The position numbers and the translations under genes were made by a program. Of a stretch of DNA of 24,041 nucleotides, positions 2,227 through 22,308 are shown one piece after another. This stretch comes from Promethearchaeota archaeon (GTDB lineage: Archaea; Asgardarchaeota; Lokiarchaeia; Sigyniarchaeales; SOKP01), in assembly GCA_019057865.1 (NCBI GenBank), contig JAHLWP010000050.1, positions 1 through 24,041 of the forward strand. Direction: 5' to 3'. Numbering within the stretch: position 1 is the first letter of the stretch; each line of letters opens with the position of its first letter. A model generated the notes under the pieces. It saw only the letters and a program-made list of their open reading frames with translations, was not told where the DNA came from and ran no database searches.

Positions 2227-3639
2227 TTAAATTTTGGCAAAGTATTGCCTCCAAAGTCGTTTGTAATTTCCGTACCACTTATCAAGCTTTATTCTTTCAT
2301 GCTTAAAATACATTCCATGCCCTCTTATTGAGGGATGATAGTGAGTTTCTCGAACTAATAACTGATAATTTTCATATGTTTCATTGAAATCATCAATAAA
2401 TTCAGGAAATTTACCAAAATTATGCCTAAATACACGATAATCAAGTACTCTCTGTGCCCCTTCAGGAGTCATCATGCTCCTTTTAAACGATGGATAATAG
2501 GTATATTTCTTATGGAACCCTTCTAAGAGGTTATTCGTGGTTGTTATGAACGGATTCCGCTGATGGGCAATAATTTTCGGAAGCCATGACTCCAACTGCT
2601 TTAATGCAGTATGAAGCTCTTTTATCTTCTTTCCTTTCAAGCGTTCCACTGTTCTACGTATGATCTCTAATTTAATATATGCATCTGCTTCATCCTTAGA
2701 ATCAATCAGATCATAGAATCGCTTCAAAAGCCAACGCCATTTTTTAGGAACAGGTTTTCTTGATTGTTTCGATAATCCCGCAAATGCTTTTACATGCTTG
2801 GAGACGATCCATTTTACATGTGTTAAGCAATTTTGCTGTATTATATGCTTAAAACTTCTGGTTCTAAAGAGTCCGCCTAAGTTTGTAGTACAATCTTTCA
2901 TTAATCCATTTATCCACAGATTTTTGCCCCTCCTTCCTTCCATTAACACTTCCCTGCCCTCATTGCGCCCCATATGCTCTGAAATTTTAGCCACTGGCAC
3001 AAATTGGGTATTTATATCCACCGTATCTATAGCATACATCCGTTCTTTGCTAATTCTTAAATGGATCTCATCATATCCCCAATATCCGCTAGAAGGCACA
3101 GGTGTCTCTTTTAACATCTTTCTAAGCGGTCTAGCAACCTTATTTATCCAATTTACAAGTGTAGTTAATGAAATCTGTATACCAAAATCAATTTTAAACA
3201 CTCGCTGAATTTGAGAGGGCATCAACCCTTCCATATAATGTTGCCGTGTCCTTCGTGTATAATTCTCATGGTAATTGCCATATTTTGGCGCGATCTTCGA
3301 ATAATCAGGTTTAATTTCTCCACATCGAGGACAACGCTTTCTCTGAATGTGAAACTCGTGTCTCCCAAGCCCGTTATCTAAAATCGCAATCCTGTCATTA
3401 TGTCCATTTTTCACCAATCGAGAACCACATGTAAGACAGTGTGTCTCTTTAATATATATCGTTCCATTTCCTTTCATTCTTAAGGTATAACCCTTATCAA
3501 TAGATAATGCCTTTCTCCTTTTCACTTCAGCCAGTAGACTATGATTTTTAGGTTCAGGTAAATTAGGAAAAAATTTATTTAGAGTGTATTGTTCTATCTT
3601 AATGGGAGCTAATTTTTCTCTTATTTTACTTATTAGCAT
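2227..3639 (-). CDS. DDE transposase with N-terminal zinc ribbon
   Basis: CxxC...CxxC, HTH-like region, GYDE (D1), MKDC (D2), QNCLTH (CxxH signature of Mutator/IS256-type enzymes), TTNNLLEGFH (E). Confidence 0.93.
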   Translation of the reverse strand: MLISKIREKLAPIKIEQYTLNKFFPNLPEPKNHSLLAEVKRRKALSIDKGYTLRMKGNGTIYIKETHCLTCGSRLVKNGHNDRIAILDNGLGRHEFHIQRKRCPRCGEIKPDYSKIAPKYGNYHENYTRRTRQHYMEGLMPSQIQRVFKIDFGIQISLTTLVNWINKVARPLRKMLKETPVPSSGYWGYDEIHLRISKERMYAIDTVDINTQFVPVAKISEHMGRNEGREVLMEGRRGKNLWINGLMKDCTTNLGGLFRTRSFKHIIQQNCLTHVKWIVSKHVKAFAGLSKQSRKPVPKKWRWLLKRFYDLIDSKDEADAYIKLEIIRRTVERLKGKKIKELHTALKQLESWLPKIIAHQRNPFITTTNNLLEGFHKKYTYYPSFKRSMMTPEGAQRVLDYRVFRHNFGKFPEFIDDFNETYENYQLLVRETHYHPSIRGHGMYFKHERIKLDKWYGNYKRLWRQYFAKI

Positions 3640-7826: not shown

Positions 7827-8702
7827 ATGACAGATAAAACTTTAAAACAAACTAGTATAATAGAATTACCCGACGAAAAAAAAACAAATCATAAACTAAT
7901 TATTGGGGATGCATTAGAAGCGTTAAAAAATGAAGATTTAATTGGATCAGAAAGTATTCAATCTATAATAACAAGTCCTCCATATGGATTATATAAAGAT
8001 TATGGAGGATTTTATGAAGATAAATTTAATTTAGAACAATGGAAGGAATTAATCGACAAAATTGCTAAAAATAGTAGAAGAATTTTAAAAAAAAACGGGA
8101 GTTTTCTTATTAATATATCTCCTATCCCAAAAAATACTAAGACAAAAGAAATTACACCACTTGATTCATATGTATATTTTATATTTAAAGAGAATGGATA
8201 TTTCTTAAGAAATAAAATTATTTGGCATTTTAACAATATGCAAAACTGTATTAAAAGATTAAGTGGAAGGTGGGAAGCAATTTTATGGTTTGTAAAAGAT
8301 TTAAATGATTATATCTTTAATCTGGAAGATATCAGAATCCCATTTATTACTAAAAAAGATAAGAGATTAGAAGGAAAAAAAGGGAGAAATCCTACTGATC
8401 ATTGGTATTTTAATAGAGTAAACAATATGACTAAGAATAGATTAAAAATAAATCATCCATGCGTTTATCCAGATCCAATGATAGAAAGAATAATTAAGAT
8501 GACTACAAATGAAAATGATATCGTTTTAGATCCATTTGTTGGTTCTGGAACAACTATGAGAGTTGCAAGATATTTAAATAGAAATTCAATAGGTATTGAA
8601 ATAAATCCAAATTACATTGATCTCATTAAAAGAAGGCTTGAATTAAATAATTTAAAATATGGAAAATCAAAATTTAAAGTAATTAGATTTAATAATATAT
8701 AA
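7827..8702 (+). CDS. Beta-class DNA amino-methyltransferase, probably N4-cytosine
   Basis: Motif IV IITSPPY near N-terminus, HPCVYP, motif I VLDPFVGSGTT, SIGIEIN. Confidence 0.95.
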   Translation: MTDKTLKQTSIIELPDEKKTNHKLIIGDALEALKNEDLIGSESIQSIITSPPYGLYKDYGGFYEDKFNLEQWKELIDKIAKNSRRILKKNGSFLINISPIPKNTKTKEITPLDSYVYFIFKENGYFLRNKIIWHFNNMQNCIKRLSGRWEAILWFVKDLNDYIFNLEDIRIPFITKKDKRLEGKKGRNPTDHWYFNRVNNMTKNRLKINHPCVYPDPMIERIIKMTTNENDIVLDPFVGSGTTMRVARYLNRNSIGIEINPNYIDLIKRRLELNNLKYGKSKFKVIRFNNI

Positions 8703-8743: not shown

Positions 8744-10258
8744 ATGTATAATAATTTCAATGAATTAAATGAATTGAAATCTTCTCCTTTTCAAACTATT
8801 ATTAGTAAAATTAACCATGATCATAACTTTATACCTAATATCCTACAATTATATAGAAAATGTTTAAACCTTTTAAAAGAGCAAGGAACTATATGGATTT
8901 TTTCAAATAATATAGTTTCTAATGGTTCTTTAATTCCATTACCCTTAATTTTAAGTAATAAGTTAACGAAATTGGGATTTATATTAAAGAATTTAATTGT
9001 CTATTATAATTTAGATTATCCTTTAAATTCCATAAATTTAGAAAACCGTTATTCGCATATAATTTTTTTAACTAAAGATAAAGATAATTATAAATTTTAT
9101 AAAGATCCTATACGAGAAAAACATATTTGGAAAAATGTTGAGTGGGGAGGAGGTCGAGTAAGTAGATATCATGAAAAAGGAAAAGATCCAAGTAATTTCT
9201 GGTTAAAAACTAAAGATAATGGTAAAGGAAAAATAATTGAACATTTAATTCTTAATAATTCTGAAGTAATAGATAGGATTATTAAAGCTAGTACAGATAA
9301 AGATGATAAAGTGTTATACCTACATGATAAATTTAATAAAACAAATTATTTAAATGATAATTTCACTAACATAGAATTAAAATTTGAAGATATTAAAATA
9401 GTTAGGAGAGATAAATTTTCAAAAATTTTGAAAACCGAAAGTTCGAAATTTTTAGAAAAAAATCCTTTTAACTCGAAGATTTATATTAAAACTAGTGAAA
9501 CTATGAAAGAACTATCTGACAATTCAATTCAAACTATTATTACAAGTCCTCCTTATTGGGAATTAAGAGATTATGAACATCCTGATCAGATCGGCTATAA
9601 TAGTACTTATTCTGAATATTTATCAAGATTAAACAGAGTTTGGAAAGAATGTTATAGGGTTTTAAAAAATTTTGGCTCACTTTGGATTAATATTAATAAA
9701 AGAGTGAAAAGAGGTAATATGATTCTTTTCCCATATGATTTTTATGTTAACATTGAAAAAATAGGTTTTAAATTAATTGATATTATTATTTGGCATAAAC
9801 CAATTACTGTATCTGCTTATGGTTCAAAAAATTTAGGAGATCGATATGAATTTATTTTATTATTTAGTAAATCATCTGATTATAAGTTCAATTTAAATTT
9901 TAATTTAGATAAACCAGATTACATCCACTTAAATAACAAAACTTTACCTAATGTATGGCAGATGTTTCGTAAAATTGGTAGTATTGGAAAAGAAGTTGCA
10001 GTAATGATAAAAAACAAGAAAATTCATCATACCGCTATTTATCCTATAGAATTAGTAAGAAGAATTATTTTATTAACTACTGATAAAGGAGATTTCATAC
10101 TTGATCCATTTTCAGGATCTGGCACAACTTTAGTAGTAGCTAATAAATTATCAAGAAATTGGATTGGTTATGAAACTAATTCAAATTATGTTGAAATTAT
10201 AAAATTTAGATTAAAGACTGAAGGGAAAAGAATAAAGAGAATAGATGAGTTCTTCTAA
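8744..10258 (+). CDS. Two-domain beta-class DNA methyltransferase (degenerate N-terminal domain plus intact SPPY domain)
   Basis: C-half has IITSPPYW, HTAIYP, ILDPFSGSGTT, WIGYETN; N-half keeps LLKEQGTIWI, GFILKNLIVY, GKDPSNFW, RIIKASTDKDDKVL but lacks motifs IV and I. Confidence 0.93.
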   Translation: MYNNFNELNELKSSPFQTIISKINHDHNFIPNILQLYRKCLNLLKEQGTIWIFSNNIVSNGSLIPLPLILSNKLTKLGFILKNLIVYYNLDYPLNSINLENRYSHIIFLTKDKDNYKFYKDPIREKHIWKNVEWGGGRVSRYHEKGKDPSNFWLKTKDNGKGKIIEHLILNNSEVIDRIIKASTDKDDKVLYLHDKFNKTNYLNDNFTNIELKFEDIKIVRRDKFSKILKTESSKFLEKNPFNSKIYIKTSETMKELSDNSIQTIITSPPYWELRDYEHPDQIGYNSTYSEYLSRLNRVWKECYRVLKNFGSLWININKRVKRGNMILFPYDFYVNIEKIGFKLIDIIIWHKPITVSAYGSKNLGDRYEFILLFSKSSDYKFNLNFNLDKPDYIHLNNKTLPNVWQMFRKIGSIGKEVAVMIKNKKIHHTAIYPIELVRRIILLTTDKGDFILDPFSGSGTTLVVANKLSRNWIGYETNSNYVEIIKFRLKTEGKRIKRIDEFF

Positions 10259-10279: not shown

Positions 10280-11041
10280 ATGGCATATCAGACTCGTTTT
10301 ATTGATTTTATTAAAGAAATAAAGGAAGAACAAATCAATTTTTATGAATATGACTTAATTGTTTTAAATAACAAATGGAATTGTGAAAAGAAGAAAATTA
10401 AGGAAATAGCAAGGATAGAAACTAACAAATGGCTTTCATTAAAAAGGTTTGGTGGAAATTTAGTTTTAATATTAATTGATACAATATTTAGTTTAAGAAA
10501 CAATTATGAAAGAATGTTGAGAAATATATTAATCCCATTTTATCAAAAATTTTCAAAATTCAAGTTACAGGATTTTGAAAAGATGAATTATAATGAACTA
10601 ATATCCTTTTCTTCCAAGAACTATTTAAATCTAGAATCCCTTCATCCTTTTTCTGATTATAATAGATGGAAATTATTTAAGACTTTTGTATATTTTTTAA
10701 TAAACAATTTTGATGGTGAAATTGATAGAATTCATAATTGGGCAATAAACCTTGATATAAGGGATTTTCTTAAAAATAAATCAAATAAATATGATTTTAA
10801 AGGATTTGGAATAGCTGGAATTCAATATTTAAGAATGCAATTAGGAGTAAATACAATTAAACCTGAAATTAGGATTAAAAACTCTTTAAAATTCTTTAAT
10901 ATTCAGTTTAAGAATGATTTTGATGTAATTAAAAAATTAGATGACTTTAGCCAAATCTTAAATTTAAAATTAATGGAACTTGGATTTATATTATGGTATT
11001 CCTATCCAATAAGTAAATTAAAATTCCATTCTGGAAAATAA
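10280..11041 (+). CDS. HhH-GPD superfamily DNA glycosylase-like protein
   Basis: LIDTIFSLRNNY, helix-hairpin-helix FKGFGIAGIQYLRMQLG, VNTIKPE (Glu at the usual Asp position), C-terminal LMELGFILW. Confidence 0.6.
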   Translation: MAYQTRFIDFIKEIKEEQINFYEYDLIVLNNKWNCEKKKIKEIARIETNKWLSLKRFGGNLVLILIDTIFSLRNNYERMLRNILIPFYQKFSKFKLQDFEKMNYNELISFSSKNYLNLESLHPFSDYNRWKLFKTFVYFLINNFDGEIDRIHNWAINLDIRDFLKNKSNKYDFKGFGIAGIQYLRMQLGVNTIKPEIRIKNSLKFFNIQFKNDFDVIKKLDDFSQILNLKLMELGFILWYSYPISKLKFHSGK

Positions 11042-11267: not shown

Positions 11268-12143
11268 TTAAAAATCATTTAAGCTTTTCTGAACTCTTAC
11301 ATTCTTCTTAGGTTTTTTAAAATTTTTTTTCCTTTCATTAATAATTTTAAAAGCTGTCTCTTTTTTATTTTTAAATATATAATATAAAGCTGAAAAAGGA
11401 TGCATTTCTAATAGGGGTAGATAGATTTTTTTAGTCACTGCAATTTTTTTTTTACCTTTAAAATCTCCTTCTCTTTCTTTTCTATTCCATTCAATTTTTA
11501 CTTCATCTAGATATTTAAATACTTCTTTTGCATCCCAAAAGAATACACCCTTAACACATGGATAATCTAACCAATATACATAATAAGTATCTTCATCAAG
11601 GCTATCAATTATTTCTCGTTGAGCTTTAATTTTTTTTGCAATATCTAGAGTTGTTGATCCTTCATAGCATTCTCTTCCAGGTCTTACTTTGTAAGTTAAG
11701 AGAAAAGGAGATGTTAAGAATTTAACTTCATAATAACATATAATTTCATTATCATCACCTTTTACTAAATTATCAGGGTAGTTTTTATACGATTTATCTG
11801 CTTTTTCAGAATTAATTTCTTCTTTCTCCTTAAGAAAATCAATTAGTAAGAATTCGAATTGACGTCCAAGAATAACATCTAGCTTCTTATTAGATATATT
11901 TCGAGGATTCATATAATACTTATAACAACCAGAACATACTTTTTTTAACGAAGGAATTATATTAAAAAAGTTTTGCCTTTCTTGAACAATATCATTTGTA
12001 TAATATAAATACTTATAACATAATTCAGATATATCATCAAAAATAAATTGCCTTTCCTGTAGATTTACATTTTGAAAAAATTCTGATAATCTAGGTTTAC
12101 TAAAATCTAATAATTCCTTGAATAATGAAATACTTTCTTCCAT
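11268..12143 (-). CDS. PD-(D/E)XK endonuclease, putative restriction endonuclease
   Basis: LGRQFE...NYPDNLV...YYEVKF; adjacent to two MTases. Confidence 0.8.
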   Translation of the reverse strand: MEESISLFKELLDFSKPRLSEFFQNVNLQERQFIFDDISELCYKYLYYTNDIVQERQNFFNIIPSLKKVCSGCYKYYMNPRNISNKKLDVILGRQFEFLLIDFLKEKEEINSEKADKSYKNYPDNLVKGDDNEIICYYEVKFLTSPFLLTYKVRPGRECYEGSTTLDIAKKIKAQREIIDSLDEDTYYVYWLDYPCVKGVFFWDAKEVFKYLDEVKIEWNRKEREGDFKGKKKIAVTKKIYLPLLEMHPFSALYYIFKNKKETAFKIINERKKNFKKPKKNVRVQKSLNDF

Positions 12144-12227
12144 AATTATTTCAAGGATTAATTTATTATTATTCTTTTTTTAAATTTGAAAAAATTTTTA
12201 TAAATTAATAATTACTAATAAATTATT

Positions 12228-13502
12228 ATGGGTTCTATAAAGACAGATTCCTTGGATATTCAAATACCATCATTTTTTCCAATAATAGGATGGCCAGCAG
12301 GTCGTGGAGAATATGATAATCTATTCAGAAATCTCTCTTATTTCTGTAATAAATTGGATCATTGGACATTTTTATTTAACTTTTCTTCATTTATATTTGG
12401 CTTTACTATACCAAAAACTAATCCTTTTTTCAATGATTATATTAAATATGAAGGGAAGAATATTAGAGATATATTAACCGAATATACATTAACTAATAGA
12501 GAGGTTGTAAGTAAAATAAAAATCCTCCTCGATGTTGGAGGTAATCGTATTTTTAATAAAGTAATAAATGATAATCTCCCTGTTTCAGAAATAAATAGTT
12601 ATAGACGTTATTATGAAGCGTATTTCAATTTTATAAAAAACGGAAAACCAAATGTATATGTTAATTTTGATATAGGTCCAAGCTACTCATCTAGAGATGA
12701 AGTTTCAATTAGAGGTCGAGAAGAATGGAATAAATTATCTCAATCCATAAAAGAAAACATAAATGATCAACTATTAGAAATTTCCATCCAAAATAAACAA
12801 AAGGAGAGTAAATTAATGATACCTATTAATGCCTTGAATCTAGAACATTTTAAATCAAAATTAAGTAAATTACATTCAAAATATCAAGAAGAAATTGATT
12901 ATATCGGAATAGCAGGAATAGCTAATCAAGGATTTAAAAAAGTAAATCAAACACTAAGATTTTTTAATAATTTCAGAAGAAAATCTAATTGGAATGTCTT
13001 ATGTCATGGATTAGGTTTAGGTGGATGGAAAAAAATATTTGCCTTAGCATATTATGATATTGAAAGTTGTGATGTTGCTACACCTTGGAGAAGGGCTTGT
13101 ACAGATAGAATATCTCAAGTTTATATCCCCTTAATTGATGAACAGTTAGAAATTACTTCTCACTCTGATCCTTTACGATATGAAGGATTATATAGTGACC
13201 GATTTCAAGATTTTGCTTGTAATTGTCCTTTTTGTAATGATATTCCTCTAGTAGATGTTAGAAATAGATGTATGAATGCAGATAAACAACTCATAAATCA
13301 GGAAAAACATGGTGAAGATTTTAGAGAAATGAGAATCAGAATATTTTTTCATAATCTATATCAACATATAGCATTACTTAGAAAATTATTTATATTAAAG
13401 CAAGAAAAACCACAAAATTTTATTAAATCCTTTTTAAATGAGATTAGAAATACAGAAGCAAGAAAAAAAATTAGAAATGCTGTAAAAGATTTAATGTTGT
13501 GA
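12228..13502 (+). CDS. tRNA-guanine transglycosylase (TGT) family protein, possibly DNA-acting (DpdA-like)
   Basis: IPSFFP, LLDVGG (cf. DSGG), NFDIGP, YIGIAG, HGLGLG, ESCDVATPWR (second catalytic Asp position), zinc site CNCPFC...HNL; no PUA domain. Confidence 0.85.
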   Translation: MGSIKTDSLDIQIPSFFPIIGWPAGRGEYDNLFRNLSYFCNKLDHWTFLFNFSSFIFGFTIPKTNPFFNDYIKYEGKNIRDILTEYTLTNREVVSKIKILLDVGGNRIFNKVINDNLPVSEINSYRRYYEAYFNFIKNGKPNVYVNFDIGPSYSSRDEVSIRGREEWNKLSQSIKENINDQLLEISIQNKQKESKLMIPINALNLEHFKSKLSKLHSKYQEEIDYIGIAGIANQGFKKVNQTLRFFNNFRRKSNWNVLCHGLGLGGWKKIFALAYYDIESCDVATPWRRACTDRISQVYIPLIDEQLEITSHSDPLRYEGLYSDRFQDFACNCPFCNDIPLVDVRNRCMNADKQLINQEKHGEDFREMRIRIFFHNLYQHIALLRKLFILKQEKPQNFIKSFLNEIRNTEARKKIRNAVKDLML

Positions 13503-14079: not shown

Positions 14080-15177
14080 TTATTTATGTAATGACTCTAA
14101 ATTACTAATTATTAATTCTATCATATCAATTAAATTCGTCTCCGAACTAGAACTAAGTTCTTCCTTCTTCAACCTTAATTCTTTAATAATAGGAATTATA
14201 TTTTCTTCAATATTAGTCGAATTTAATAAATTTCTAAAATTTTGTAATGTATAGATATCTTTTTTATCAATAGCTTTATATATCTCAGTTAAAATGCTTT
14301 TAAAATATCCACATTTGTATAAAATTAGAGTAATATCACTATTTTTATATCCACTTTCATATAATTTTTTAAAATTGTGATAATTTACACTATTTACTAG
14401 TTCTGAAAATTTAGGCTTTAAAACTAACATCCTAACTGTTCCCAGAATAATTCTTTTTATTAGATCATTATTTTTGCTTAGAATATATTTATCTACACTC
14501 TCGACATATTTGTTGATTACATCAAGCTCATTTTCAGTAAAATCTTCTTTAACTAAAATTTGTGCAAATACATTATGAATTTTATTTAGCATTGGCACTA
14601 TATTCGTAGAAGATAACTGTGAATTCTTAATCATATCTAAATATTCTTTAATTAATTCTAAATCAGGCTTTATTTCAATTTTCTTGATTGGGTCAATATT
14701 ATTTAGGTCTTTTTCATTAAATAAAAAATATAATTGTTTATCTGAAACTAAGCGTTTCCCAAAAGGTGTTCGAATATAATAAATACGATTTTTAATCTCA
14801 GGTCCCTTTCTTTCAATTATAAATGCATGAGGAATATCTTTTTTCCTTTCAATTGTTATAATTGATAAATCTCCTTCCTCACATTCCAAAAATTCAAAAT
14901 TATAATTTATGATTGGGCTTATTTTATTATGAATAATATTATCAATATCACCTTTCAGGGTATCTACATCATAATCTTTTTTTCCATCAAAAGAACCATC
15001 ATTTTGAAGACCAATTATTATCTTACCACCATTTCGATTGGCAAAAGATATTATTTCCTTAGCTATTTTATCCTTCCAATCCTTTTCTTTAAGAATTTTA
15101 GAGCTCTTTAATTCATATTTAATATTTTCAAATTCAGATTTTTCTCGTAATTTCTCTATTTCGATACATTTGGTCAT
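14080..15177 (-). CDS. Schlafen/AlbA_2 domain protein with helical C-terminal domain
   Basis: EFENIKYELKSS, IAKEIISFANRNGGKIIIGLQND, IPH, YYIRTPFGKR. Confidence 0.92.
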   Translation of the reverse strand: MTKCIEIEKLREKSEFENIKYELKSSKILKEKDWKDKIAKEIISFANRNGGKIIIGLQNDGSFDGKKDYDVDTLKGDIDNIIHNKISPIINYNFEFLECEEGDLSIITIERKKDIPHAFIIERKGPEIKNRIYYIRTPFGKRLVSDKQLYFLFNEKDLNNIDPIKKIEIKPDLELIKEYLDMIKNSQLSSTNIVPMLNKIHNVFAQILVKEDFTENELDVINKYVESVDKYILSKNNDLIKRIILGTVRMLVLKPKFSELVNSVNYHNFKKLYESGYKNSDITLILYKCGYFKSILTEIYKAIDKKDIYTLQNFRNLLNSTNIEENIIPIIKELRLKKEELSSSSETNLIDMIELIISNLESLHK

Positions 15178-16260: not shown

Positions 16261-16527
16261 ATGAATAAAGAAGAATTTGAAAATAAAAAATCACTCATAA
16301 TCAGAAATGGATTAAATATTATAAATGGATTAAAGGAGACTTTTGAAGCGTTATCGAAATATGACTGGTATGAAAAATTTGTAGATACAATTAACATTGA
16401 TGGTAGAATTATAGAAACAGAGCCAGTGGATATAAATATATTATTTGATAAGATAAGAGCACTTGCTACTGAACTTATTAAATATCCCAATAATCTTGAA
16501 TCATTATGGGAAAAGGGTTTAAAATAA
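16261..16527 (+). CDS. Hypothetical protein, possibly a fragment
   Basis: 88-aa ORF, same strand and composition as neighbours. Confidence 0.55.
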   Translation: MNKEEFENKKSLIIRNGLNIINGLKETFEALSKYDWYEKFVDTINIDGRIIETEPVDINILFDKIRALATELIKYPNNLESLWEKGLK

Positions 16528-16559
16528 GAGTTAAAAGAATAATGATAATCCTATTAAAT

Positions 16560-17159
16560 ATGACCAAAAAAATTAAAAAAAAAAAGGAAAATCTTTCAAA
16601 TCTTCCCTCTAAAGACGGGAACTATAATCTTTTTAATAGAAAAGGAGAGATGGTCTATACAGGACAAGGAAACATAAAAGATAGAATCTCTACCCATTCC
16701 AATGAACCAAATGTGCCCTTCACATCATTTACATATAATCTAGAGCCATCTGCTAAAAAGAGAAAGGAGATTGAGGAAAAAAGAATAAAACGCTATAAAC
16801 CACCTCTAAATAAATTGTATGACCGTGATATTATAAAAATCTCTGGAGAATATGATTCACATCAGAAAGTCATTGCTAATTTAACTATGTTTGAAAAAAT
16901 TAAAAGCATAGAATTATCAAAATTGAAAGATCTAAAGTTCAAACATCCCATTGAATTCGAACTTGAATATAAGCATAGCGCTATTTTTGCTCATAATGAG
17001 AATTATGATCTTTATGCAACAGGTTCTACTTATAATGAAATGATTCAAGATTTATATAGAAGAATTAAAGCAATTATTGAAATGTATTCAAATCCTGAAA
17101 TCAGATTTACAAAATCATCAGAAGATTATCGAAGGAAATTTTTAGAAACTTTCTCATGA
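16560..17159 (+). CDS. GIY-YIG nuclease domain fused to a HicB-like C-terminal domain
   Basis: LPSKDGNYNLFN...VYTGQGNIKDRISTH...E..RIKRYKPPLN (GIY-YIG); IFAHNENYDLYATGSTYNEMIQDL (HicB-like). Start inferred at ATG 16560 rather than 16506. Confidence 0.8.
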   Translation: MTKKIKKKKENLSNLPSKDGNYNLFNRKGEMVYTGQGNIKDRISTHSNEPNVPFTSFTYNLEPSAKKRKEIEEKRIKRYKPPLNKLYDRDIIKISGEYDSHQKVIANLTMFEKIKSIELSKLKDLKFKHPIEFELEYKHSAIFAHNENYDLYATGSTYNEMIQDLYRRIKAIIEMYSNPEIRFTKSSEDYRRKFLETFS

Positions 17160-17182
17160 AATAAATAAATGGGTTTGAATAA

Positions 17183-17479
17183 ATGACTCAACTTAGAAGA
17201 AGAATTGTTATAAAAGGTCTAAAAAATAAAGGATTTAGACCAATTCCTGAAAAATCAAATGATCTCTGGTTTGGACTTACGATTGATGGCGAGTTTGTTC
17301 CTCAGATAAAGACTTTTATAAGCGGAGGTGGCCAAAGACAAATGATTTATGAGGATAATATTCACCATATGACTCATGAATTGCACATGGATAATAAAAA
17401 ACAATTTCTAAATTATATTAAATGCTCTTATATTTATAGTGAATATATCAGAGATTTAAGAAGAAAGAATATTATATGA
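17183..17479 (+). CDS. HicA-like small basic protein
   Basis: VIKGLKNKGF...WFGLTIDG...IKTFIS...M..EL.M.NKKQFLNYIKC; follows a HicB-like domain. Confidence 0.65.
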   Translation: MTQLRRRIVIKGLKNKGFRPIPEKSNDLWFGLTIDGEFVPQIKTFISGGGQRQMIYEDNIHHMTHELHMDNKKQFLNYIKCSYIYSEYIRDLRRKNII

Positions 17480-18204: not shown

Positions 18205-18684
18205 TTGAAGCAAAGGAAATTCAAAAGCTGTATTCAAACTTTTTTATCTTTACTTGACATGAAAAGGCATCCAAAAGCTAGCTATATGAAGATACTATAC
18301 CTAGCCTTGAGATATCACCAAACAACCTTTAGTTTGGCAGAACTTCCGCATAAATTTCTAATTCTAACGGTTGTTTTCGAATCATTATTTAAAGGAGAAA
18401 AGGAGAATGCAAGCCGAGCAGCAAAAAGAATTTCAAAACTAATTTCAAAAGTAAAAAATGATCGGCAAAGAATTCATAAAGCATTCTGTGGTAATCCTCC
18501 AGATACATTTTGCAAAATTAGAAATGCAATTGCTCATGGAGACCCTAACCTTAAAGAAGAAATAGTAGAATCGAAATATCCATTATTGTACAAATATATC
18601 ACTAAAGCAATAATCGAATTAATTTTAATCCCATCTGGAGATATAAATTATAATAAAGATTATTATATTGAGATAGATAATTAA
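18205..18684 (+). pseudogene. ApeA-like HEPN domain, probably 5'-truncated
   Basis: FLILTVVFESLF and RxxxxH motif KIRNAIAHGD; TTG start, no N-terminal domain. Confidence 0.75.
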
Positions 18685-18782: not shown

Positions 18783-19808
18783 CTATAACTCAGTCTTTAA
18801 TAAAGGCAAACATACTTCCTTCATGAATATCTTACACTGTTTTATGTACTTCTTTACAAGTGCTTTTTTCTCTTCATTTAAAAAATCAATTAGCCATTTA
18901 TTATGATAAATATTTATTATAAAGACTTGCTGCCCATTCATCTCAAAAGATTTAAATAACCTTAGGGTTTTGAAATCTTCATAATATTTAGACATGTTGA
19001 CTTGTATGTCATTTAATAATCCCGCTGTAATTTTCATTCCTTTCTTTTTTAATAAATTTGTAAATTGTTCTTGGGATTCTTTTCCGAGGAAAATAATTAA
19101 CAGGGGTGTAATTAATTGAACCTCCTCATAGAGAAATTGAATGCAGCTTTCAGAGCACTCCTTCCATTTTTGATTGTTTTTCGCATTACATTTACATAAA
19201 TCTGTAATGTATATGTTATTCTTGATAAATTCGAAGCGAATTCCAAAGATCTCGGCGAAGTATTCCCAGAGATTATGATTCTCAATGCCTTTTCTGTATT
19301 TTTCTAATTTTTTCGCTTTGGAACTTTTTTCCCAGTATTTATACTTTTTATATCGTAAGTTGCCAAGCCCTTCATCACTTACTTCTTTCTCCAATTGCTC
19401 AAAGATTTGATTGTTTTCTTTCTCAGCCCATCTTCCATCATTTCTTATGTGGAGATTTACGAGTCCATAAGCTAAATTCAGATGAGTGGAAATGCCTGGA
19501 CCTGCAGCCTCTCCAACCACCATAATCAAAGCAGCTATCTCGCCACCTTTAAAGTTTAAAGTGACATTTCCTCCCGGGATCTCCATAGGTCGTTCTTGAA
19601 AACCCTTTCCAAAGGCCTGAATGCATTCTGGTCTTTTACAGCCTTCATTTATATTTCTCTTGAATTCAATCAGAAACTTGTTTATCGCAACCTTATCTTT
19701 TATGAATTTCACAGTCTCTTTTTCAATATCAAAATGCAACAACAGATCAGCTAATCTTGGACTATAATACCGTTTTAAAAGTGCTTCAAACTTAATAATT
19801 CTTGTCAT
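18783..19808 (-). CDS. Uracil-DNA glycosylase superfamily protein (divergent, with insertions)
   Basis: IMVVGEAAG (cf. GEAPG), IYITDLCKC, C..FLYEEVQLITPLLIIFLGKES, INIYH. Confidence 0.8.
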   Translation of the reverse strand: MTRIIKFEALLKRYYSPRLADLLLHFDIEKETVKFIKDKVAINKFLIEFKRNINEGCKRPECIQAFGKGFQERPMEIPGGNVTLNFKGGEIAALIMVVGEAAGPGISTHLNLAYGLVNLHIRNDGRWAEKENNQIFEQLEKEVSDEGLGNLRYKKYKYWEKSSKAKKLEKYRKGIENHNLWEYFAEIFGIRFEFIKNNIYITDLCKCNAKNNQKWKECSESCIQFLYEEVQLITPLLIIFLGKESQEQFTNLLKKKGMKITAGLLNDIQVNMSKYYEDFKTLRLFKSFEMNGQQVFIINIYHNKWLIDFLNEEKKALVKKYIKQCKIFMKEVCLPLLKTEL

Positions 19809-21279: not shown

Positions 21280-22308
21280 ATGAAATATTTATACCTTAAA
21301 CTTGGCAAATCAAATAGTCAGTTAAATTATTGGTTAAAAAAAGAAGAAAATTTATTTAAAAAGCCCTCCGCGGTCATCTATTTTGGAAAAATAACGACCG
21401 AGAAGTGTAAGAGTCTCTTTGAATTAACCAAGAATGAGATAGAATCTTTAAGAAAAAAAGATGGGGAAGTTCCTACAAATATAGACCTTCATGACCAAAT
21501 AAAAAAATTCATTAAAGCCGGAGAAAATAAGTATGTAAAATTTATTTCGATTCATGATAACAAAGTATATATATATGAACCAGCTACCGAAGTTTTTGAT
21601 ATGCCAGTAGAATTATATGACAGATTTTATAAAAGTTTAGAAGATTATGGAATTAAAAAAGATGATATTGAAGATATCAAGAATAGCACGCCAAAAATCA
21701 TGCATGTTAAAATTGTCGAGATAGTTGACAAAGACATTCCATATATATTAAGAACGTTAAATGTAAATCAATATTTTAATAGGGGAACTTGTAGGGAGAT
21801 TAAAGAGAAAGATTATTGGGGGATAATTCAAGCAATAAAAAAAATTTTAAAGCAAAAGAGGGATTATTCAAAAAAACTAGAGTCATATCAAATGTTCAAA
21901 CTTTTAAGTCCACATCAATTTGAAACTCTAATCTTCTTAATTTTGAACAACGCTGGACTCTTTTCTCCTGCATGGCGTGCTGGATCCTTACCGGATATTG
22001 ATATAATCGGGATAAATTATTCTGATTCAGAAGTTAAAATTGGAAATAATCCGACAATTAATTTTAAAAAGGATAAAGAGATTAAGTTTCAAGTTAAAAG
22101 AAAAAGCATTAAGGAAGCTCAAAATGCTGATTATACTATCGCTTTAAGTTCATCAGTCGAAAATGATAATAGTAATCGTATTTTAACATCAGATTGGTTA
22201 TTAGATGTCATTAGAAATCAAACAGAGACAAAAAAATGGCTTGAAAATTCATTAAGATGGTTTATAAAAAATACAAACAAGAACTCGATCTTTGAATTAT
22301 TCGACTGA
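21280..22308 (+). CDS. Mrr-like restriction endonuclease (C-terminal D...QxK nuclease, unknown N-terminal domain)
   Basis: LSPHQFETLIFLIL...GSLPDIDIIG...FQVKRK. Confidence 0.8.
   Translation: MKYLYLKLGKSNSQLNYWLKKEENLFKKPSAVIYFGKITTEKCKSLFELTKNEIESLRKKDGEVPTNIDLHDQIKKFIKAGENKYVKFISIHDNKVYIYEPATEVFDMPVELYDRFYKSLEDYGIKKDDIEDIKNSTPKIMHVKIVEIVDKDIPYILRTLNVNQYFNRGTCREIKEKDYWGIIQAIKKILKQKRDYSKKLESYQMFKLLSPHQFETLIFLILNNAGLFSPAWRAGSLPDIDIIGINYSDSEVKIGNNPTINFKKDKEIKFQVKRKSIKEAQNADYTIALSSSVENDNSNRILTSDWLLDVIRNQTETKKWLENSLRWFIKNTNKNSIFELFD

Follow-up and report, generated by a model that had tools for sequence, protein, structure and literature searches.

The TGT-fold enzymes known so far either install 7-deazaguanine in tRNA or DNA or bind a protein that carries a modification. 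The question raised here is what a divergent TGT-like protein does in a Promethearchaeota archaeon, on a stretch of DNA of 24,041 nucleotides (assembly GCA_019057865.1, contig JAHLWP010000050.1; called the window below). The first-pass annotation had proposed a repurposed, possibly DNA-targeting enzyme, with an anti-tRNA role as a second option. The features on which the argument turns are the following.

7827 to 8702, plus strand: DNA methyltransferase MT1, 291 aa (PF01555, E = 2.5e-53; beta-class motif order, SPPY then DPFxGxG)
8744 to 10258, plus strand: DNA methyltransferase MT2, 504 aa (PF01555, E = 6.3e-63, in two stretches)
10280 to 11041, plus strand: accessory ORF, 253 aa (helix-hairpin-helix-like motif by eye)
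11268 to 12143, minus strand: PD-(D/E)XK nuclease, 291 aa (invariant P123-D124, E139 and K141; near-invariant E97)
12144 to 12227: AT-rich spacer of 84 bp between the divergent nuclease and TGT-like genes
12228 to 13502, plus strand: TGT-fold protein, 424 aa, ATG to TGA (D102, D148 and D282; zinc ligands C331, C333, C336 and H375)

The family assignment of the 424-aa protein rests on its fold and its relatives. A Pfam scan of the query gave no TGT match, phmmer against the PDB no match at all, and neither TIGR00430 (bacterial Tgt) nor TIGR00432 (arcTGT; cut-off 350 bits) recognized it, the best relative reaching E = 1e-5 with the latter. Comparison of its AlphaFold model (pLDDT 90.9) with known structures revealed a (beta/alpha)8 barrel and a C-terminal zinc subdomain; bacterial, archaeal and eukaryotic TGTs were matched with Z scores of about 25-27 (rmsd 3.1-3.7, 11-15% identity) and unrelated TIM barrels with Z of at most 14. 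In profile comparisons (hhalign), the wider TGT-like family aligned to arcTGT with a probability of 98.6%, the arcTGT catalytic domain being the best match. Membership of the TGT superfamily is thus settled by the predicted structure. The model aligns end to end with residues 21-351 of the 577-aa arcTGT 1iq8; it spans just the catalytic domain and therefore has no PUA and no C1-C3 tRNA-binding domains. The lack of a PUA domain, pointed out by the first-pass annotation, is confirmed by this alignment and loses its diagnostic value, since bacterial Tgt and DpdA also do without one. The gene appears to be under constraint (dN/dS of about 0.17 against the ortholog of Promethearchaeota Loki_b31). 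A weak search limited to proteins of at least 857 aa found no longer or fused forms, and no relatives were found in viral contigs or plasmids; two weak partial phage matches were recovered.

Profile alignment with arcTGT and Tgt equates D102 with the acid/base residue, D148 with the guanine-binding residue, G230 with the backbone position and D282 with the nucleophile. The retention of two catalytic aspartates (D102 in DVGG, residues D102-G105, and D282 in SCDV) and of the zinc ligands had been noticed before and holds; the third aspartate, D148, also retained, the pocket changes at N106 and N201 and the four-gene cassette described below had gone unnoticed. D102, G104, D282 and H375 are invariant in 26 full-length relatives sharing 43-70% identity, and G104, D148, H260, L262, D282, R289 and Q379 remain so in 36 sequences down to 16% identity, a set in which D102 and H375 are near-invariant. 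A WRR motif after the nucleophile D282 is invariant as well (TPWRR), and a Gly-rich loop follows strand 1. The unusual spacing between CxCxxC and the histidine is real: it amounts to 38 residues, compared to 22 for arcTGTs, 25 for the Tgt of E. coli and 21 for a pair of archaeal DpdAs. The zinc cysteines are missing from a few relatives (P0027, P0063, P0064 and P0069). The base pocket is a different matter: the DSGG-Y/F and Gln203 pocket of bacterial Tgt is absent, the query having V103, N106 and N201. N106 replaces the base-stacking aromatic residue (F99 of arcTGT, Y106 of Tgt), and N201, at a position variable within the query's subfamily, the guanine-reading His or Gln (His181 of DpdA, Gln203 of Tgt). 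DVGG in place of DSGG, taken earlier as a mark of divergence, is present, as a trait of this subfamily, while a profile search showed that the wider family reads DSGSG; one branch of it, clade B, retains an APIHG histidine. These patterns suggest that catalysis has been conserved in this enzyme while its base pocket was remodelled.

The eroded pocket would also suit a non-catalytic specificity subunit, in which the barrel would aim the nuclease by binding or flipping a base, without breaking a bond. The modelled nuclease is a single small domain, nearest to structure-specific resolvases (closest structures Hjc, RecU and restriction enzymes, with a modest best Z of 8.4), which speaks for this reading. 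We nevertheless consider such a subunit quite improbable, D148 and D282 being invariant down to 16% identity, unlike what a degenerate binder would show. A complex prediction for the TGT-like protein and the nuclease gave a score of 0.00, which is no verdict and weighs neither way.

Whether the protein could be a divergent housekeeping enzyme, acting on G15 or G34 of tRNA, was addressed through its genome, its phylogeny and its distribution. The fold, the aspartates and the profile match to the arcTGT catalytic domain are those of such an enzyme. However, the host genome, an Asgard assembly that is 99.7% complete and belongs to the same family as Loki_b31, has its own arcTGT (TIGR00432, 394 bits against the cut-off of 350) as well as an ArcS-like gene. 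In the tree, the query's clade (support 100/99) stands outside the arcTGT clade (100/98); deep branches are long, particularly those of a 9g DpdA and P0039, and the tree is trusted for this separation alone. The gene and its cassette occur in one of 54 genomes of the genus, being absent from the 53 congeners, and relatives are scattered among Asgard archaea, Methanolobus, Micrarchaeia, Woesearchaeota and Chloroflexota. With the missing PUA domain added, a housekeeping function is barely credible, in agreement with the first-pass annotation.

Nuclease, TGT-like gene, MT1 and MT2 share a contig in 14 distinct loci of archaeal, bacterial and metagenomic origin; in some of these, the TGT-like gene is of clade B and shows no more than about 23% identity to the query. 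In a 15th locus, a different methyltransferase sits at the MT1 position (L027:4878-9672, where a 729-aa DUF1156-type enzyme replaces MT1 and an HhH-GPD-like gene follows MT2). The usual order is nuclease then TGT-like gene, with the two methyltransferases convergent on the other strand, and the distance from nuclease stop to TGT start is -20 to +15 nt in 16 loci. The divergent orientation seen in the window is confined to two Asgard loci, the 84-bp spacer being presumably a shared promoter region. MT1 shows 50-84% identity across cassettes; in MT2, the N-terminal methyltransferase half is degenerate and the C-terminal half, with SPPY and DPFxGxG, intact. Both motifs are intact in both methyltransferase genes of 13 loci, and SPPY, which is not decisive, suggests that MT1 and MT2, both assigned to the N6/N4 DNA methyltransferases by Pfam, are beta-class N4-cytosine enzymes. 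Searches of plasmids and the PDB with the methyltransferases named no cognate system or target site, and no MT1 relatives were found in viral contigs. The 253-aa ORF, confined to the two Asgard loci, is not a core part of the cassette. No Pfam or PDB match was found for it and no kinship to the HhH-GPD-like gene of L027 could be detected; its motif ends in KPE, where glycosylases usually have an Asp.

The cassettes, four genes in about 4-5.7 kb, are AT-richer than their flanks, as is the one in the window, and frequently have integrases or other defence genes nearby. PADLOC gave no match for the neighbours, and no published cassette of a nuclease, a TGT and two methyltransferases was found in the literature searched, of which coverage was incomplete, so that an earlier mention is possible. 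The cassette is a mobile, apparently undescribed variant of restriction-modification. Travelling with a nuclease and two DNA methyltransferases, the TGT-like protein most likely helps an immune system against foreign DNA. We therefore read it as a DNA-acting defence component and not a tRNA enzyme, with a probability of about 0.85, and the repurposed, probably DNA-acting role proposed at first is supported by this conserved context.

Another reading, an anti-tRNA or abortive-infection effector that backs up the restriction-modification pair by damaging tRNA or modifying a protein, had to be weighed against the same neighbourhood. Both profile and fold are nearer to the tRNA TGTs (Z of 25.5 with Z. 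mobilis Tgt and 25.4 with arcTGT) than to DpdA (19.3), and Cap10 (10.1101/2025.04.06.647259) and TIM-B (10.64898/2026.10.19.760177) are examples of TGT folds reused off DNA. All conserved neighbours, however, are DNA enzymes, and no CD-NTase, QueC-like Cap9, cyclase, antitoxin or sensor was found in any cassette locus. The anti-tRNA option of the first-pass annotation thus received no support from any neighbourhood, and we regard such an effector as very unlikely.

Other genes of possible defence interest lie in the window, in which no tRNA gene was found. A 341-aa protein of the UDG superfamily (18783-19808, minus strand), family-4-like at a score below the cut-off and with a long N-terminal part, is a possible defence glycosylase in this defence-rich region. 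A Schlafen/AlbA_2 domain protein of 365 aa is encoded at 14080-15177 (minus strand), and a 470-aa transposase-like ORF of higher GC, with weak IS66-type matches, at 2227-3639 (minus strand). Small ORFs at 16506-17479 and 18205-18684 (both plus strand), in which the N terminus looks GIY-YIG-like by eye and the matches, antitoxin-like and HEPN, are weak, may be toxin-antitoxin or defence genes. Finally, a 342-aa ORF at 21280-22308 (plus strand) gave a weak PADLOC match to HEC-01B (E = 0.019) and carries, by eye, a C-terminal PD..QVK nuclease-like motif.

There are exceptions to the four-gene pattern. Four nuclease loci were reached without a TGT query, of which one is a full cassette and three lack both TGT and MT1. 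At L036:7307-12758, a nuclease homolog without TGT lies between a gene of the adenine-glycosylase family and a type III Mod/Res pair; in L039, a decayed locus, the truncated nuclease is beside an HNH gene and MT2, with HNH in the TGT slot (a weak observation). In a phage, the nuclease stands alone between terminase and portal (L040:515-1393 and L041:3298-4176), at 27% GC compared to 42-44% for its neighbours, and looks like a free-standing mobile endonuclease. In Loki_b31, the island also includes McrBC and, at the end opposite the cassette, a second TGT-like gene, of clade B and with its own 385-aa methyltransferase (L001:2366-5169, minus strand).

Within the two TGT clades and between them, mean identities are 50, 27 and 23% for the TGT-like proteins, 61, 61 and 59% for MT1 and 46, 44 and 41% for the nuclease, which indicates that TGT subfamilies were exchanged between otherwise similar cassettes. 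Loci L004 and L030, for instance, share 68-71% identity in their methyltransferases, 50% in the nuclease and 23% in the TGT, and no co-variation of TGT subfamily with the methyltransferases was found (Spearman 0.13). Such exchange fits a fast-evolving protein of the restriction side and is silent on whether a methylated site or a viral modification is read. We place the TGT-like protein on the restriction side rather than in self-marking as the probable arrangement.

Swapping of subfamilies among cassettes with similar methyltransferases would also be explained, like the coupling to a nuclease, by a role against viral camouflage. 7-deazaguanines shield phages from restriction and are present in archaeal viruses (PMC6884629), and glycosylases targeting 7-deazaguanine phages exist (10.1101/2025.10.29.685425). 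In a counter-counter-defence, the main rival reading, which we keep as a possibility at low odds, the modified base of 7-deazaguanine-bearing viral DNA would be swapped back to guanine, opening the site to the nuclease, or excised, in which case the nuclease would cut the lesion. Stated as a reverse transglycosylase that strips the viral 7-deazaguanine, restores guanine or leaves a lesion, and hands over to the coupled nuclease, it is rather doubtful. This reverse reaction would need just guanine and so fits hosts without preQ0, and human TGT gives it a precedent, guanine displacing preQ0 from tRNA (PMC8136771). In the same study, however, guanine failed to displace preQ1 or queuine. An accessory gene of this kind should moreover often be lost, and no intact set of nuclease, MT1 and MT2 lacking the TGT was seen, in a sampling that was mostly TGT-led. 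The pocket residues are lost in the query's subfamily, and in Methanolobus, a preQ0 producer, the forward direction would be the favoured one.

The forward reaction corresponds to a DpdA-like writer, which would give the host's DNA an additional self mark by inserting preQ0 or a base related to it. NF041059, the DpdA model, is alone among NCBIfam models in matching each of the 27 close relatives (best E = 3e-9), clade B retains the APIHG histidine, and DpdA2 is without this residue although its phage carries dPreQ0 (PMC6884629). The query itself, however, scores 15 bits against a cut-off of 200, and no dpdB, dpdC or que genes were found among the called genes of the cassette loci. The TGT-like gene is transcribed with the nuclease and not with the methyltransferases, which already give a mark. 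Supply of the base speaks in the same direction. No intact queC was present in five of six carrier genomes (the host genome, Loki_b31, a Micrarchaeia, a Woesearchaeota and G709), Methanolobus being the exception, and among five carriers checked for both queD and YhhQ, these were intact solely in Methanolobus; carrier genomes are few and mostly incomplete MAGs. In the host, all that remains of queC is the final 82 codons out of 536, and queD carries a frameshift, in the middle of a contig (C53:5670-6393, outside the window); no YhhQ transporter was found. The Micrarchaeia carrier, besides having no intact queC, showed no canonical TGT. Forty of the 53 congeners have a QueC match and 13 have none. 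The loss of queC and queD in carriers argues against a writer, which we hold to be unlikely; the host retains arcTGT, so that an unknown preQ0 salvage route is possible. With arcTGT and the ArcS-like gene both kept, either loss of archaeosine synthesis or preQ0 salvage may have occurred in these Asgard archaea. Separately, L054-L060 of Halobacteriota encode DpdA-like fusion proteins of 740-1160 aa with a second, 350-aa TGT-like gene nearby.

Coming back to a restriction-side enzyme, we tentatively propose guanine excision at unmethylated foreign DNA, followed by breakage by the nuclease, every chemical step of which is inferred. The two methyltransferases, probably N4-cytosine enzymes from their SPPY motif, would protect both strands of a site in the host. 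Where foreign DNA is unmethylated, the TGT-fold enzyme would go through the opening half of the TGT reaction, with D102 activating a flipped guanine that D282 then displaces. If no replacement base entered, the outcome would be an abasic site or a protein covalently attached to the DNA, and the small PD-(D/E)XK nuclease might cut the opposite strand or the lesion, leaving a hard-to-repair break.

Several observations favour this scheme: the persistence of the four genes together across highly divergent TGT relatives, the abutment of nuclease and TGT genes with the methyltransferases usually on the other strand, the conserved catalytic residues, the cassettes devoid of dpdB, dpdC or que genes, carriers mostly lacking an intact queC (and, in the Micrarchaeia genome, a canonical TGT), the sporadic, low-GC character of the cassette and, weakly, the HNH gene in the TGT slot of L039. 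Others count against it. No TGT is known to yield an abasic site as the outcome of its main reaction. The missing co-variation with the methyltransferases is awkward if the TGT reads the same site, and the nuclease is also found without a TGT gene (L036, L039 and phage L040/L041). Host genomes are few, mostly MAGs, and activity is inferred. Among known enzymes, DpdA forms a covalent Asp intermediate, a precedent for the first half-reaction, but requires the ATPase DpdB on DNA (PMC10164549), while the cassette has no ATPase. PabI carries out base-excision restriction aided by a separate AP endonuclease (PMC10273834), but the base it takes out is the one protected by methylation; in the cassette, C probably carries the mark, and the pocket looks like one for guanine. 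The four-gene cassette is present in a cultured methanogen, Methanolobus psychrotolerans, and is therefore directly testable.

Among the closest known systems, DpdA (PDB 7UI4, NF041059, PMC10164549) has in common with the query a PUA-less TGT barrel (304 residues superposed at rmsd 3.7, Z 19.3), the three aspartates and the zinc site, as well as a context of defence and a sporadic distribution. It differs in having His181 and Phe99 where the query has Asn at both positions, in the family cut-off that the query falls far under, and in its partners: DpdB, DpdC and Que genes are replaced here by methyltransferases and a nuclease, in hosts mostly without preQ0 synthesis. The missing histidine also recalls phage DpdA2, described as a gene beside preQ0 synthesis genes, but no relative of the query was found in viral contigs. 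TgtA (1IQ8), Tgt (3UNT) and QTRT1 are the best structural matches (Z 25-27), and the query is set apart from them by its lack of C-terminal tRNA-binding domains, its longer zinc loop, Gly-rich loop and TPWRR, and by a separate clade that is mobile rather than core. A TGT fold in defence is shared with Cap10 of type IV CBASS (9NTN; Z 18.5), the BRC TGT (PMC12839542) and TIM-B (10.64898/2026.10.19.760177), whose respective partners, CD-NTase with QueC-like Cap9, HerA/PglZ/GNAT and toxic effectors, are absent here. Type IIT restriction enzymes are made of two genes, and the four-gene type II systems (BbvCI, Bpu10I; PMC12707154) likewise combine two restriction-side with two methyltransferase genes; in the present cassette, one putative restriction-side gene has a TGT fold instead of encoding a second PD-(D/E)XK subunit. 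PabI (PMC10273834) offers the likeness of base removal from unmethylated DNA with a separate nuclease, an activity that is proposed here, and differs in its HALFPIPE fold, its adenine target, its single methyltransferase and its lack of a dedicated nuclease, as against a full-length TGT TIM barrel. If a TGT fold does serve the attack in restriction-modification, it would be a second, unrelated route of base-excision restriction after PabI, or alternatively a means of reversing the hypermodification of phage DNA. In either case, restriction would gain a new chemistry and, possibly, a tool would follow for exchanging DNA bases in a sequence-specific manner.
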